DNA of 32,000 nucleotides from Candidatus Harpocratesius repetitus (GCA_021498095.1 JAIZWK010000001.1:2160001-2192000); one strand, 5' to 3'. Positions 11,902-18,104 are shown, counted from the first letter of the stretch. Numbers and translations are program-made. Notes: a model not told the origin generated them from the letters alone.

Positions 11902-14526
11902 TTAAAATATTATTTCAAATATCGAAAAAAGAGAAGGAATTTCTATTTTTAGGAAAGATAAGCCATTAAATAAAATAAAAAGAATCGTTAAACCAAATAT
12001 AGATATAAAAAGAAAAAACCATTCGTGCCAGTCCCATTTGACATGATGAAGATTGGTTCGGTTTGGAAAAGCACCAAATCCTCTGGATTCAATAGTCATT
12101 GCTGTAATTTTTGTCTTTCTTAAAATTGAGATTAGTAAAGTTGAAATTTGCTGAATTATATGTCTATAAATTTTTTTAATTGAACTTCCTTTTTTAATAC
12201 CAAAACCCCGTAATGTTTGAGCTATTTCAATGGTATTTGATTCTTTTTCTATTAGAGGGATATATCGCATTCCAATCATAAAAGCAAAAACAAATCGATA
12301 AGGAATACCAATTTGGATTAATGAAAAAATAATATCCTTTGGTGTGGAAGTTTTAGTAAATATAACTCCTGTAGAAATCAGAATTAGAATAATAATTCCA
12401 GTTCTTAATGAATAGTAAAAAGCAAGGCGTCTTACAGGTAAATTGGTAGTAAAGAAATAAAATAAAATTTGATCATCTGATATGAAATCTGCTGAAAATA
12501 GCGTATTTAATGGAATATAAATAATTGTTAAAATAAATATCCATCGAATTTGACGCAATAGTCTTACTGTTGAAATATCACCAGTTTTTGCCAAAATAAG
12601 TATTGCGATATAGGAAAAAAGGAGCACAAGAATGCTTTTAGAAGTAAATAAAAATCCTGTAAAGAAAATTAATGCGATTATTTTTGCAACTGGATTTAGT
12701 CTGTGAAGCCAATTATTTGATGGAGAATATTGGTCTTGTTGATAAAGAAAATGCTCGATACGCTTAATTTTTCTCGTTTTAGAATGATCATGTTCTTTTT
12801 TCTTTTTTTTTTTTGATCTTTTTTTCGATATTTTTTCAATTCTTGGAATTTGGTTATAACTTTCTTTCTTAATTTCTTTCTTAGAGTTTGCTTCTTTTTT
12901 AATTTCATCTAAATTTAAAATTCGGGTGCAATTAGATTTGAGTAATTTTCGATCGTGAGATACAATTACAATTGTCTTTCCTTCTTGATGAAATTCTTTC
13001 AAAATGTGAAATATTTGTTGAACAGCACTAGCATCTTGACCAATGAATGGTTCATCAATAAGCAAAATTTCAGGAGAATAACTAAAAATTGATGCTAAAT
13101 TTAGCCTTCTTTTCTGTCCCCAACTTAAATTGAAAGGATTTCGATTTTCAAGAGATTTCAGATCATTTCTATATTCTCCAATTAATGGTAATAGGTTTGA
13201 GAGAATTTCTTTTTCATTAATATTTGCTAATCTAGAATTGTTCGATTTTTTATTTTTTTTATCAAATAATTTAAAATTCCTAGGAGCGTAAAGTATCTCT
13301 TCATCTATTTTCATTTCAAAAATTTGATTTTCTGGATTTTGAAAAATAAATCCAATATTTGGGATGAATTCTTCTATATCATAGGCATTTAAAGAAATTC
13401 CATTATAAAGTATTTCCCCCTCGTTAGGTTCTAAAATATGAGCTAAAAGATATAATAGAGTTGTTTTTCCACTTCCATTATCCCCCACGATGCCTAAAAA
13501 TTCTCCTGGATATATTCTTAAAGAAAAATTATGGAAAACATAGTTTTGAGCACTAATTTTTTCCCGATAATAAGAATAAGTAATATTGTTAACTTCCATT
13601 ATTGCTGTCTGTGTTATCATAGGAAGAATTGGCGTTTGAGTTAATGAATATTGTAGATTATTTGATTTTAGTAAAAATGAATCATCACGTAGGTATCTTG
13701 ATTCTTGCATTCCAATCCAAGATTGATACTTTTTAAGATTATCATAAAAAACAAGAGTTCCTTTTGAATCAAGTATTAAGACTTTATCAAGTAAATCAGA
13801 AAACGGATTTAATCGATGTTCCACAATAATTATTGTCAACTTTGGATTATCTTTATGGATTTTTTTAAGAATGGAATAAAGCATCATTTCTCCTTTTTTA
13901 TCTAAAAAAGCGAGAGGTTCATCCAAGATTAAAATTTCAGGAGACATAACCAAAACTGCGGCGATTACAACTTTTTGCATTTCACCTCCGCTTAAATGAA
14001 GAATTGGGCGATCTAAAAGGGATGATATTCCTAATGAATCTGCGATTTTTTCAACACGATTTCGAATTTCATCTTCTTCTAATTTTAAATTTTCCAAAAC
14101 AAACGCCAATTCGTCATAAACCGTAAAAGTTACTAGCTGTTCTTCTGCATTTTGAAAAATTACACCTATTCTTTTTGAAAGATCTTCAGGAGAGTGATCC
14201 CAAATGTCTTTTCCAAATATATGAATACTTCCAGACATTTGTCCTGTTATACTATAAGGTATTCTTCCTGAAATCGCATTACATAGTGTTGATTTTCCAG
14301 ACCCACTAATTCCACCAATTAAAACAACTTCACCATAAGAAATTGAAAGTGTAATTTTTTTTAAGACAAATGGGGATTTCACATTAGATCCATATCGAAA
14401 GGAAAAATTAGAAAAATGTATACATGAAGATAGTTTGTTTTCTTCCTTATTTAATGGAACACTTGCATTTTGCAATGAAAAAACTATCTTTTCTGTTTCA
14501 GAGTTATCCATATTTTTACTTTCCAC
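11902..14526 (-). CDS. ECF transporter energizing module as one polypeptide: ATPase A - ATPase A' - T component
   Basis: GISGSGKST/LSGGE/ILILDE/EHR and GDNGSGKTT/LSWGQ/LLIDE/SHD. C-terminal EcfT/CbiQ-like region (LHRLNPVAK, RYIPLI, QTLRG and ESRG coupling-helix motifs). Confidence 0.92.
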   Translation of the reverse strand: MESKNMDNSETEKIVFSLQNASVPLNKEENKLSSCIHFSNFSFRYGSNVKSPFVLKKITLSISYGEVVLIGGISGSGKSTLCNAISGRIPYSITGQMSGSIHIFGKDIWDHSPEDLSKRIGVIFQNAEEQLVTFTVYDELAFVLENLKLEEDEIRNRVEKIADSLGISSLLDRPILHLSGGEMQKVVIAAVLVMSPEILILDEPLAFLDKKGEMMLYSILKKIHKDNPKLTIIIVEHRLNPFSDLLDKVLILDSKGTLVFYDNLKKYQSWIGMQESRYLRDDSFLLKSNNLQYSLTQTPILPMITQTAIMEVNNITYSYYREKISAQNYVFHNFSLRIYPGEFLGIVGDNGSGKTTLLYLLAHILEPNEGEILYNGISLNAYDIEEFIPNIGFIFQNPENQIFEMKIDEEILYAPRNFKLFDKKNKKSNNSRLANINEKEILSNLLPLIGEYRNDLKSLENRNPFNLSWGQKRRLNLASIFSYSPEILLIDEPFIGQDASAVQQIFHILKEFHQEGKTIVIVSHDRKLLKSNCTRILNLDEIKKEANSKKEIKKESYNQIPRIEKISKKRSKKKKKKEHDHSKTRKIKRIEHFLYQQDQYSPSNNWLHRLNPVAKIIALIFFTGFLFTSKSILVLLFSYIAILILAKTGDISTVRLLRQIRWIFILTIIYIPLNTLFSADFISDDQILFYFFTTNLPVRRLAFYYSLRTGIIILILISTGVIFTKTSTPKDIIFSLIQIGIPYRFVFAFMIGMRYIPLIEKESNTIEIAQTLRGFGIKKGSSIKKIYRHIIQQISTLLISILRKTKITAMTIESRGFGAFPNRTNLHHVKWDWHEWFFLFISIFGLTILFILFNGLSFLKIEIPSLFSIFEIIF

Positions 14527-14588
14527 AAATTTTATGATTTTTTTTATTAATATTTTACTGTCTTTAATTTTTTCATCTTTTCTTTAAA

Positions 14589-16827: not shown

Positions 16828-16892
16828 GTTGATTTACCTTATTTCTTATTTTTCTTAAATTTTAGGATTCTTCTTTTTTTAATTAACGATGT

Positions 16893-18104
16893 TCAAGCTA
16901 TTTTCTTTTTCTTTTTTATTTGACTAAGTACCAAAGCAATAATCCCAATGCTTATCACTCCAAGTTTATTGACTGTATATCCTGGAATACTATTATCATC
17001 CGGTAAATCTGATGGAATAATTGTAATTCTAATTTCAATTACTCCTCCAATATAATTTTTCTTGCTTGCTCCTGGAATAATTAATTGGTAGGGTCCCCGT
17101 GAAAATCCAAGATCTTTTCCATCTTTCTGAACCATCAACATTGCCTGTTTTCCTTCGTTTGAAAGTTCAACTGCAGGATCATTAATCATAGTTCCAGTAA
17201 ATCCATTCTCCATTTGCTCTTTAGTAAAAACCATATTTGCTCCATAGCCATCATAAGCGATAAAGGATATATTGTAATTTTCATTAGTTATTTGTTGCAT
17301 TAAGCTGGCAACTGTGAAGCCAGTTGAGAGCGATCTACTCCAACCATACCCTGATGCATTGTCGAAATATCCCCATGTATAACTAGTAAAATTGACTGAA
17401 TTTGTGTTATTTTGGCTGTTGAAATAACCGATTTTTGTTCCATTTACCGTGAAACTTAATGTCCAAGGATCTGTATAATCAATTGATACAATATCCCTAA
17501 CTTTTTGCTTTCCAATTAGGTTCTCTCCCCAGATATAAAAGTTTCCATAATCTGGATTGTAATCATGGAGCCATTGATTATTCCATGCAATCAGAATAAT
17601 AGTAGCGTTGTCAGTCTCAGGATATTTAGAATAATCTGAATCTGCCATTAAGAGTTGAGTTGTATTAATAACAAAACTGTATCCATCTCCCGCTTTAACT
17701 GTGAAATTAAAGATGTCGTTCCATCCAGCAATTTCAAATAAATGTAATGGATTAAAGCCAATTACTGGGTAAAAACTTCCCTCTTTTTCAATTGTATAGT
17801 TTTTCATTTGAAATGTATGATTTTCATAAGTTGTATAGTTAATAATTTGACTCAAAGTAAATAATCTGGAGTAATCTCCCTTATGGAGGGTGATATTTGC
17901 ATCTGGAATATCACCAGCTGGAAAAGTTACATTATTCCATAAATCATCGGCTACGATTGGAACGAGATTATATTTTGATGCCGATTTCATCTTCTCATTG
18001 GAGTATTGAACGTTAGATACAAATGAATTGCTCAAAATCATTAATCCAATTAAAAATCCTAATAACAGAGAATTTGTTATAAATTTTTTCTTCATTTTTA
18101 TCAA
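16893..18104 (-). CDS. Surface glycoprotein-like protein with two molybdopterin-binding-fold domains and Loki-CTERM tail
   Basis: Signal peptide; domain 1 GFNPLHLFE...VKAGDGYS...KVRDIVSI; domain 2 TGFTVASLM...FIAYDGY...KDGKDLGFSRGPYQLIIPG...IEIRI; tail SIPGY-TM-KKKKK; many N-x-S/T sequons. Confidence 0.75.
   Translation of the reverse strand: MIKMKKKFITNSLLLGFLIGLMILSNSFVSNVQYSNEKMKSASKYNLVPIVADDLWNNVTFPAGDIPDANITLHKGDYSRLFTLSQIINYTTYENHTFQMKNYTIEKEGSFYPVIGFNPLHLFEIAGWNDIFNFTVKAGDGYSFVINTTQLLMADSDYSKYPETDNATIILIAWNNQWLHDYNPDYGNFYIWGENLIGKQKVRDIVSIDYTDPWTLSFTVNGTKIGYFNSQNNTNSVNFTSYTWGYFDNASGYGWSRSLSTGFTVASLMQQITNENYNISFIAYDGYGANMVFTKEQMENGFTGTMINDPAVELSNEGKQAMLMVQKDGKDLGFSRGPYQLIIPGASKKNYIGGVIEIRITIIPSDLPDDNSIPGYTVNKLGVISIGIIALVLSQIKKKKKIA

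Follow-up and report, generated by a model that had tools for sequence, protein, structure and literature searches.

An ECF transporter operon with anchored pterin-binding-fold proteins: a candidate uptake system for the Mo/W cofactor in an Asgard archaeon

How might an archaeon that carries Mo/W enzymes come by their pterin cofactor if the genes needed to make it cannot be found in its genome? Candidatus Harpocratesius repetitus raises the question. Its complete, single-contig, 4.36-Mb genome holds six AOR genes and one Fdh-type (PF00384) gene as its Mo/W enzymes. HMM searches of the whole 4.36-Mb genome gave no match to MoaC, the MoaA C-domain, MoaE or MoeA_N, and tblastn of the genome with Moa/Moe queries from the same order gave no MoaC, MoaD, MoaE, MoeA or MoaB. 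The sole MoCF_biosynth domain of the genome sits in a CinA-type protein, and neither a ModA/WtpA-type binding protein nor ThiC was found in it. The operon described here is a strong candidate for an uptake system of the Mo/W cofactor, which would be the first in a microbe. To judge from comparative genomics, it probably encodes an ECF importer that takes up the pterin cofactor used by Mo/W enzymes, metal-bound or possibly as metal-free molybdopterin.

The operon lies in a stretch of 32,000 nt, called here the window (Table 1). A preliminary description of the window had claimed five co-oriented genes with short gaps, encoding three anchored SUOX-like proteins with four domains in total, an S component and an A-A'-T energizing module. 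ORF calling in the window bears out the layout. Five co-directional minus-strand ORFs are separated by gaps of 65, 70, 15 and 62 nt, the last of these placing g4 just upstream of g5. The gene order is kept in 8 Asgard loci as well as in P. syntrophicum MK-D1 and L. ossiferum, both of which have the operon, no MoaC or MoeA, and 7 AOR genes each. The neighbours of the SUOX-like genes are ECF components; a DcpA-type GGDEF-EAL partner gene is absent among the operon neighbours. No Rfam match, riboswitch included, was obtained up to E=1 in window positions 11000-19500.

Table 1. Features of the operon (11902-18104, minus strand) in the 32,000-nt window from Candidatus Harpocratesius repetitus, GCA_021498095.1 JAIZWK010000001.1:2160001-2192000.
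Feature	Position	Strand	Residues	Description
AT-rich intergenic region 5' of operon	18105..18471	-		presumed promoter
g1	16893..18104	-	403 aa	surface protein
g1 N-terminal domain	17472..17903	-	aa 68-211	probably divergent SUOX-like fold; DGY at aa 140
g1 C-terminal domain	17016..17471	-	aa 212-363	PruR/SUOX fold; DGY at aa 285
g2	15949..16827	-	292 aa	paralogue of g3
g3	15252..15878	-	208 aa	signal-anchored receptor (proposed)
g4	14589..15236	-	215 aa	ECF S component
g5	11902..14526	-	874 aa	fused A-A'-T module
g5 ATPase domain A	13735..14421	-	aa 36-264	profile matches
g5 ATPase domain A'	12856..13602	-	aa 309-557	profile matches
g5 T (CbiQ) transmembrane domain	12055..12717	-	aa 604-824	after Lys-rich linker

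Two ECF-type ATPase domains, a CbiQ/EcfT T component and a same-operon S component make the operon an ECF system, with the energizing module and S component where the preliminary description had placed them. The g5 protein matches the ECF ATPase profiles TIGR04521 (334 bits, cut-off 330) and TIGR04520, contains PF00005 twice (aa 55-206 and about 330-530), and matches the CbiQ profile PF02361 with 81 bits over its T domain; the A-A'-T fusion is kept full-length in MK-D1 and L. ossiferum. The sole PF09819 gene of the genome is g4, which scores 20.7 bits, below the cut-off of 25.2, in a family where all 50+ close relatives carry PF09819. Its atlas neighbours give a score of 0.96 to ECF S component, and its relatives are auto-annotated as thiamin/HMP permease. 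A 20-orthologue profile of g4 compared with YkoE (5edl) gave E 0.066 and 16 bits, a remote likeness and not a close relationship.

On sequence grounds, then, the ECF system is a dedicated, group-I-like one. YkoEDC of Bacillus subtilis follows a similar plan: the system is likewise dedicated, and one operon encodes its PF09819 S component, two copies of the ATPase and a T component of the CbiQ type. Here, however, A, A' and T are fused in one chain, extracytoplasmic receptors are present, the S component resembles YkoE only distantly, and the bacterial homologues stand under Moco rather than TPP riboswitches, with no link to ThiC.

The claim of three anchored SUOX-like proteins with four domains holds for the anchors and for three of the domains; the fourth, at the N-terminus of g1, is only probable. 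All three proteins have an N-terminal hydrophobic helix as anchor, and g1 and g2 also end in hydrophobic, Lys-rich tails. In g1 this end is a Loki-CTERM-type anchor, as judged from the hydrophobic tail and from the naming of an L. ossiferum homologue as a Loki-CTERM sorting-domain protein (the MK-D1 homologue is DSAG12_02463). In g3, a TM helix (aa 2-43) is followed by a Cys-less PruR/SUOX-fold domain (aa 51-208). The top Foldseek matches of its AF2 model (pLDDT 83.7) are PruR entries 7kp2, 7kom, 7rkb and 7kos, then YedY and SUOX, with E about 1e-5; the probability is 1.0, also to YedY 1xdq/1xdy and the sulfite oxidases. In its paralogue g2 (31% identity in alignment), the N-terminal helix and the C-terminal anchor flank a single SUOX-like domain (about aa 74-229).

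In the AF2 model of g1 (pLDDT 73), the C-terminal domain matches PruR 7kom with Z 15.0 and an rmsd of 2.2 A over 121 residues, and sulfite oxidases with VIA-align Z 14-15. The single VIA-align match of the N-terminal domain is 9a64_A (Z 9.9), which the g3 model matches too; profile-profile comparison of this domain with the g3 family found no significant match. Given the Z 9.9 match and the second DGY motif, the modelled domain probably has the same SUOX-like fold. Thus, Foldseek and VIA-align, applied to predicted models, answer the question of fold in favour of a SUOX/PruR-like one.

These are not, however, typical members of the family by profile. The gathering score of PF00174 (Oxidored_molyb), 24, is not reached by g2 (11.2 bits, over profile positions 70-129) or g3 (12.1 bits), and g1 has no match; more distant family members and bacterial homologues pass it, with 33-51 bits. 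A conserved Mo-ligating Cys is absent from all SUOX-like domains of g1-g3. There is no cysteine at all in g1, none in g3 after residue 51, and one in g2 (C101), at a position where the g3 family and the L. ossiferum orthologue have Arg. Invariant in the g3 family alignment are N86, D124-G125-Y126 and G163-P164, and D-G-Y is an invariant motif shared by the four domains of g1-g3.

A Cys-less SUOX fold with a known ligand does exist. PruR binds pterins in a site equivalent to the Moco site, through residues N102, Y104 and W160, and a PW motif is also characteristic (PMC11194511). The D-G-Y motif may correspond to N102-x-Y104 of that site. The periplasmic PruR proteins, among them Atu3496 of Agrobacterium tumefaciens, are small, exported and non-enzymatic, and the four PruR entries above are the best structural matches of g3 and of the g1 C-terminal domain. 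In Proteobacteria, PruR takes part in signalling together with the diguanylate cyclase DcpA and is encoded in pruR-dcpA operons (PMC11194511), whereas g1-g3 are encoded in an ECF operon. Unlike PruR, they are membrane-anchored and comprise 3-4 domain copies, with no detectable sequence similarity to it and 10-19% identity in structural alignments.

Where would such receptors meet the transporter? ECF transporters are usually described as functioning without binding proteins. Here, a complex model of g4 with g3 gave ipSAE 0.74, against 0.01 for the best of 3 controls; in the tool's calibration, the ipSAE mark was reached by 58/80 solved complexes and 2/110 mismatched pairs, counts that hold only roughly because user-made alignments fed the model. 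Contact agreement between runs was at least 96%, and partner pLDDT at least 88. In the modelled interface, the g3 TM helix packs against S helix 170-192, and g3 loops 86-90, 122-129 (DGY) and 157-161 (GGDG) face S loops 65-74 and 118-122, so that the conserved loops of g3 are predicted to sit over the S component. We know of no solved complex of this kind; the score is therefore unlikely to reflect a memorised structure. If true, the arrangement would give ECF transporters an additional, extracytoplasmic tier of receptors.

The distribution of the operon among relatives speaks to its cargo. Among the 121 genomes of the order, 47 carry the module without the MoaC/MoeA pathway and 51 the pathway without the module; 8 carry both and 15 neither. 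The association (Fisher p=2.6e-12, odds ratio 0.05; genus-stratified CMH p=2.4e-7) counts related genomes as partly independent. Mixed states occur within the genera (not genes) labelled g1, g3, g4, g6 and g8. AOR is present in 120/121 genomes of the order, in 2-17 copies. Phylogenetic profiling, proposed earlier as a check, thus finds the module strongly complementary to MoaC/MoeA, with Mo/W enzymes near-universal. Gene linkage is also found: in three genomes of two genera (G186, G240, G273), a moaC-moaA-moaD-moaE-moeA-moaB-moeA cluster comes right after the module on its strand, and in another (G206) the distance to a MoeA-like gene is 3 kb. Because both MoaC and the module are missing in 15 genomes of the order, and in whole AOR-bearing Asgard families, either another route to the cofactor exists or detection is incomplete.

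Homologous loci occur in bacteria. All 56 loci have SUOX-like genes and then ECF A, A' and T. An RF01055 Moco/W-cofactor riboswitch stands directly upstream in 21/54 bacterial loci scanned, and neither TPP nor THF riboswitches were reported at them. Operons for moa, mod and tup are preceded by RF01055 as well. The archaeal operon in the window, unlike that regulon, has no riboswitch. As published, the RF01055 regulon comprises biosynthesis genes, molybdate/tungstate transporters and Moco enzymes (Regulski et al. 2008, PMC2408646); an ECF system joined to SUOX-fold receptors is not listed in it. In Brassicibacter, the operon also encodes a PF09819 S component, a nucleotide pyrophosphatase/phosphodiesterase and MobB, and some bacterial loci adjoin moa/moe/mobB genes. 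Since 31/47 bacterial carrier genomes keep MoaC, the bacterial system is not a replacement for synthesis.

The mechanism proposed here begins outside the cell, where the three anchored, Cys-less proteins of the PruR/SUOX-type pterin-binding fold would capture labile cofactor. The signal-anchored g3 would dock on the S component, a member of the YkoE superfamily, and hand the cofactor over to it, and the fused A-A'-T module would power uptake by ATP. In the host archaeon, the importer would replace the missing Moco biosynthesis and supply the six AOR-type enzymes and the one Fdh-type enzyme. The reading as a Mo/W-cofactor importer gains support from comparative genomics, each genomic test proposed for it having come out favourably; cargo identity, transport direction and hand-off are what we infer.

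Parallels to parts of this scheme exist. BtuG of Bacteroides, a high-affinity surface receptor, captures scarce B12 and passes it to a membrane transporter; the logic of capture and hand-off is the same, while the fold, the transporter class (TonB-dependent), the cargo and the phylum differ. Caenorhabditis elegans reportedly takes up bacterial Moco, as Warnhoff and Ruvkun are said to have found in 2019, and because it lives on Moco made by others, the intact cofactor can cross membranes. That uptake is by an animal through an unknown transporter, whereas the candidate here is prokaryotic, ATP-driven and a defined gene set. In the searchable literature, as far as found, no prokaryotic Mo/W-cofactor importer has been described, nor was a published description of the operon found; a 2026 review calls it unknown how pterins cross membranes.

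Some points count against uptake of the cofactor, besides the genomes with neither system, the MoaC kept by bacterial carriers and the partial independence assumed in the statistics. Free Moco is very labile, although the carriers seen are anaerobes throughout. The PruR cleft is truncated and suits small pterins rather than Moco (PMC11194511). Also to be set on this side are the membership of g4 in one Pfam family with YkoE, which binds thiamine, in a host also without ThiC, and the step from an imported mono-pterin to the bis-pterin W site of AOR or the dinucleotide of Fdh, to be taken without MoeA or a recognisable MobA.

What else might such an operon do? It could import a pyrimidine or pterin that has nothing to do with Moco, such as thiamine/HMP, as YkoEDC does, or a compound of the folate/methanopterin type, the SUOX-like proteins being generic receptors for pterins or pyrimidines. 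The PF09819 family of g4, the permease annotation of its relatives, the missing ThiC of the host and the small pterins bound by PruR (PMC11194511) all fit this. Yet ThiC is present in 46/55 module-bearing genomes and shows no association with the module in the 121 genomes (p=0.27), the bacterial homologues lie behind Moco riboswitches and in part beside moa/moe/mobB, and the module adjoins a moa/moe cluster in Asgard genomes. The likeness of the S component to YkoE is remote (E 0.066), and we consider such a cargo improbable. Early intermediates raise another question, since cyclic pyranopterin monophosphate (cPMP) is the most stable one of the pathway and could be imported in place of the finished cofactor. 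Bacteria and the eight both-bearing Asgard genomes have MoaD/E and MoeA available for it; the host and its module-only relatives do not have the MoaD, MoaE and MoeA needed to convert it, so that cPMP cannot serve the host as its useful cargo, and this reading is very unlikely.

No more credible is import of the metal as an oxyanion, be it tungstate or molybdate. Among the targets of Moco riboswitches are metal transporters of the modABC/tupABC type (PMC2408646), the host has no ModA/WtpA-type binding protein that we could find, and the operon stands beside moa/moe genes in some genomes. The metal would, however, be useless without MoaA, MoaC, MoaD, MoaE and MoeA, which were not found in the host or in the 47 module-bearing relatives, and a metal importer should track the pathway positively, where the observed odds ratio is 0.05. 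To our knowledge there is no ECF system for oxyanions. The receptor fold, for its part, binds pterins (PMC11194511). Finally, the direction might be reversed, with the operon exporting or trafficking cofactor to extracytoplasmic SUOX-like redox proteins. ECF-dependent flavin trafficking of this kind has been described in Listeria extracellular electron transfer. The SUOX-like proteins are indeed extracytoplasmic, an FMN_bind protein opens the Brassicibacter operon, an EB_dh-like protein is encoded in the operon of Asgard relatives, and many bacterial carriers can make Moco. But the module is found mainly in same-order Asgards unable to make the cofactor (the 47 module-only genomes), where an exporter would have nothing to export; no domain has a conserved Mo-ligating Cys, and PruR, the closest structural match, is not an enzyme. 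Export is accordingly a doubtful proposition, with little probability.

If the operon imports the Mo/W cofactor, what follows for its hosts? MK-D1 and L. ossiferum, the two Asgards in culture, are predicted to depend on outside cofactor for AOR and formate dehydrogenase. Both kinds of enzyme have a central part in the H2/formate syntrophy that has been proposed, in which the compounds exchanged are B12, biotin, lipoate and TPP, Moco not being among them (PMC7015854); no paper was found that describes a Mo/W-cofactor case of cross-feeding between Asgards and partners. We lean, though only just, towards a broader view, in which many Lokiarchaeial Asgards, MK-D1, L. ossiferum and the Harpocratesius-like genome among them, are unable to make the cofactor and would take finished metal-pterin from syntrophic partners through the module, cofactor cross-feeding would be part of the tie to the partner, and the riboswitch-controlled module would serve general Moco salvage in anaerobic bacteria. 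The operon offers a defined, testable gene set. If the proposal is true, it bears on the cultivation of Asgards and on how partner dependence is modelled for the origin of eukaryotes.

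Import of a molybdopterin-type cofactor is the most likely function of the five-gene operon, and a probable one; the operon is treated here as a candidate importer. To judge from its gene content, the window genome encodes enzymes that need this cofactor but would be unable to make it. This Asgard genome is a single contig of 4.36 Mb, with an estimated completeness of 93.6%, and it carries six full-length enzymes of the AOR family (E 1e-63 to 1e-142) together with one molybdopterin oxidoreductase (PF00384). HMM searches of the complete genome found no MoaC, MoaA C-terminal domain, MoaE or MoeA; as a control, the families were detected in 11 of 14 genomes. 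When proteins from a genome of the same order were used in tblastn, MoaC, MoaD, MoaE, MoeA (both copies) and MoaB had no match in the window genome, and MoaA matched only generic radical-SAM genes. The sole MoCF_biosynth domain lies in a CinA-type protein, not in MoaB or MogA. A search for MobA through PF12804 returned only nucleotidyltransferase-like ORFs of 289-489 aa, and no binding protein of the ModA/WtpA type was found in the genome. An imported cofactor would thus have to be converted to its bis-pterin or dinucleotide forms in a cell with neither MoeA nor a recognisable MobA.

The last two genes of the operon provide the ECF machinery. In the 874-aa ORF, two ATPase domains of the ECF type are joined to a CbiQ-type T domain (TIGR04521 at 334 bits, with a cut-off of 330; PF00005 twice; PF02361 at 81 bits). 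The 215-aa ORF, fourth in order, encodes the ECF S component, which belongs to PF09819; its own score falls slightly below the Pfam cut-off, but PF09819 is found in every one of some 50 close relatives, whose annotation is ECF S component. No other PF09819 gene occurs in the window genome. Thus, the preliminary description was right to see five co-oriented genes with small gaps, ending in an S component and an A-A'-T module. The homologues bear the names Promethearchaeota, Lokiarchaeum ossiferum, Promethearchaeum syntrophicum and Candidatus Harpocratesius sp., the last with 90% identity. An Rfam scan of window positions 11000-19500 matched no family.

Coordinates of the operon, its surroundings and features of homologous operons (L handles denote loci of homologous operons)
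Feature	Sequence	Coordinates	Description
Five-gene operon	window	11902-18104, minus strand	five ORFs head to tail (403, 292, 208, 215 and 874 aa), gaps 15-70 nt
Imperfect inverted repeat	window	18175-18202	CGTTATGTA ... TTCATATCG; 70-100 nt upstream of the operon's first gene
Divergent neighbours	window	18472-22833	399-aa 4Fe-4S dicluster-domain protein, AhpC/TSA peroxiredoxin, DsrE-like protein, ABC ATPase; no link to the ECF operon seen
Operon of Brassicibacter mesophilus DSM 24659	L038	1459-9346	Moco riboswitch RF01055 first, then in order an FMN_bind protein, a SUOX-like protein of two domains (PF00174, 42 bits), a second SUOX-like protein, the S component (PF09819, 52 bits), a phosphodiesterase/nucleotide pyrophosphatase (PF01663), a third SUOX-like protein, A, A', T and MobB
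Bacterial moaC-moaA (own Moco riboswitch) or moeA	L080	10514-12175	within a few kb of the ECF operon
Bacterial moaC-moaA (own Moco riboswitch) or moeA	L028	6900-8091	within a few kb of the ECF operon
Bacterial moaC-moaA (own Moco riboswitch) or moeA	L029	230-778	within a few kb of the ECF operon
Archaeal operon variant	L021	4862-9816	adjoins ribosomal protein S3Ae/S15 genes; two-domain and one-domain Oxidored_molyb-like genes, then the PF09819 S component and both ATPases fused in one 777-aa protein, then a separate T gene
EB_dh-like protein	L104 (MK-D1)	6897-7893	weak PF09459 match
EB_dh-like protein	L018	11632-12498	weak PF09459 match
EB_dh-like protein	L102	5221-6156	weak PF09459 match
Operon proteins	P. 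syntrophicum MK-D1		DSAG12_02461, DSAG12_02463
Operon protein	L. ossiferum		NEF87_005006

The three genes that precede the ECF genes encode the putative receptors. Pfam gave no significant match for the 403-, 292- or 208-aa ORFs, and two of the three match the same stretch of PF00174 (Oxidored_molyb) weakly (E 0.14-0.27). AlphaFold2 modelled the 208-aa protein (pLDDT 83.7) as a beta-rich domain with a long helix at the N terminus. Its best matches in the PDB are structures of the periplasmic pterin-binding protein PruR (7kp2, 7kom, 7kos and 7rkb, the last with neopterin), followed by YedY/MsrP and sulfite oxidases, with a probability of 1.0 throughout. The 292-aa protein is a paralogue of the 208-aa protein, with 31% identity. 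In the model of the 403-aa protein (pLDDT 73), residues 212-363 match PruR with Z 15.0 (121 residues at an rmsd of 2.2 A) and also match sulfite oxidases, with Z 14-15. Residues 68-211 are graded as only probably having the same SUOX-like fold, because they match a single entry, at Z 9.9, which the 208-aa model also matches. No SUOX entry was retrieved when PDB sequences were searched with A1, a profile built from the 208-aa family, and therefore the link to this fold comes from structure comparison alone. Likewise, hhalign found no significant similarity between the 208-aa and 403-aa families (probability 1.5%).

A D-G-Y motif is present in each of the four domains. Cysteine is absent from the whole 403-aa protein and from the domain of the 208-aa protein; the 292-aa protein has a single one, which is not conserved. 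In this the putative receptors resemble PruR, which has the SUOX fold, lacks the Mo-ligating cysteine and binds pterins where Moco would otherwise sit, in a cleft shorter than the Moco site (PMC11194511). PruR is a published precedent for the SUOX fold as a pterin receptor. The preliminary description had counted four Moco-fold domains in the three proteins. That observation stands, because the folds are PruR-like, lack the cysteine, and have in PruR a structural match that binds pterins where Moco would lie; the 208-aa, 292-aa and C-terminal 403-aa domains can be accepted, and the N-terminal 403-aa domain is probable only.

The predicted complex of the 208-aa protein with the S component supports a model in which the receptor would dock and hand its cargo on. 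Here, ipSAE was 0.74 in three runs, against 0.01 for the best of three controls; contact agreement was at least 96% and partner pLDDT at least 88. When the tool was calibrated, 58 of 80 solved complexes met the mark, as did 2 of 110 mismatched pairs; since our runs took our own alignments, these figures apply only approximately here. In the model, the membrane helix of the receptor lies against S-component helix 170-192, and the most conserved receptor loops (86-90, DGY at 122-129, GGDG at 157-161) face conserved extracellular loops, 65-74 and 118-122, of the S component. No solved complex of an ECF transporter with such a receptor is known to us from which the predictor could have learned the answer.

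Across the order, the module (SUOX-like receptors, PF09819 S component, ECF A-A'-T) and the biosynthesis pathway are complementary. Four queries (A1, MoaC, MoeA_N and AFOR_N) were run against the same set of 121 genomes; the module was found in 55, MoaC in 52, MoeA_N in 58 and AOR in 120 (2-17 copies). Counting MoaC or MoeA as the pathway, 47 genomes have the module only, 51 the pathway only, 8 both and 15 neither (odds ratio 0.05, Fisher p=2.6e-12). The 15 with neither are mostly incomplete, but 3 are more than 90% complete. Related genomes are, of course, not independent, and the association was therefore stratified by genus; it persists (Cochran-Mantel-Haenszel p=2.4e-7), and both states occur inside the genera coded g1, g3, g4, g6 and g8. 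A broader profile (A2) was left out of this count because at phylum level it also catches SUOX-like genes away from ECF genes (families f12, f16 and f22).

Where archaeal genomes keep the pathway beside the module, the two can be physically joined. In one relative (G186), a single strand carries a PKD/g1-like gene (g1 encoding the 403-aa protein), an EB_dh-like gene, a SUOX-like gene, the PF09819 S component, A-A' and T; moaC, moaA, moaD, moaE, moeA, moaB and moeA follow directly after the T gene. This 13-gene arrangement is repeated in G240 and G273, two genera being represented overall. G206 has a MoeA-like gene at a distance of 3 kb from the SUOX-like one. All 8 Asgard loci that were inspected keep the order SUOX-like gene, S component, A-A'(-T). 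In MK-D1, G186 and G240, the slot of the second SUOX-like gene holds a protein of about 300 aa with a weak match to EB_dh (PF09459, haem-binding DOMON-like), a hint that the operon may include a redox accessory.

When species-representative genomes were searched with a single family member of bacterial type, 56 loci were obtained; they belong to Actinomycetota, Clostridia, Tissierellia, Halanaerobiales, Christensenellaceae, Oscillospiraceae and Coriobacteriia. All those with enough sequence have a SUOX-like gene followed by ECF A, A' and T, usually with one to three extra SUOX-like genes upstream. In 21 of 54 loci, the Mo/W-cofactor riboswitch RF01055 immediately precedes these genes on their own strand (40-74 bits in Rfam scans, with a gathering score of 36), and many of the others are truncated on the upstream side. 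Two further copies lie elsewhere in the bacterial loci, one of them preceding moaC-moaA. The proximity of moa or moe genes in some bacterial loci mirrors the Asgard linkage. In Brassicibacter, a surface pyrophosphatase might trim a dinucleotide form of the cofactor outside the cell, and MobB might rebuild it inside. MoaC is kept in 31 of 47 bacterial carrier genomes, and therefore the system there would supplement synthesis, not replace it.

The Pfam family of the S component suggests a different cargo, HMP or thiamine. The likeness to YkoE is remote, however, the S-component profile reaching only E 0.066 against its solved structure. ThiC, used as a specificity control, is present in 106 of the 121 genomes and is not associated with the module (p=0.27), which counts against HMP or thiamine import as the main reading. 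Proposals that the cargo is a metal oxyanion or cPMP, or that the system exports, fit poorly with genomes that have the module and no Moa or Moe gene of any kind. Uptake of Moco, as the preliminary description had interpreted the operon, is supported by the absence of the pathway, by the complementarity that phylogenetic profiling found, by the linkage to moa and moe genes and by the bacterial Moco riboswitches; from these we infer the cargo. In the openly accessible literature, no ECF system with SUOX-fold receptors and no prokaryotic Moco importer was found.

Two cultured Asgard archaea, P. syntrophicum MK-D1 and L. ossiferum, have the operon, including the same A-A'-T fusion. Neither has MoaC or MoeA_N by HMM search, and each has 7 AOR genes. 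ThiC (HMP-P synthase) is absent from L. ossiferum, the window genome and its two congeners. The MK-D1 paper names a molybdopterin-dependent FdhA, and lists B12, biotin, lipoate and TPP, not Moco, among the compounds that come from partners (PMC7015854).

Several Asgard families have neither MoaC nor the module, and thus the module is not the sole answer to cofactor supply; in family f5, for example, all 21 genomes have AOR and 2 of them MoaC, and none gave a SUOX-like match. Across the sample of the phylum, AOR occurs in 197 of 201 genomes but MoaC in only 91. Missing Moco synthesis therefore seems to be widespread among the Asgard archaea.
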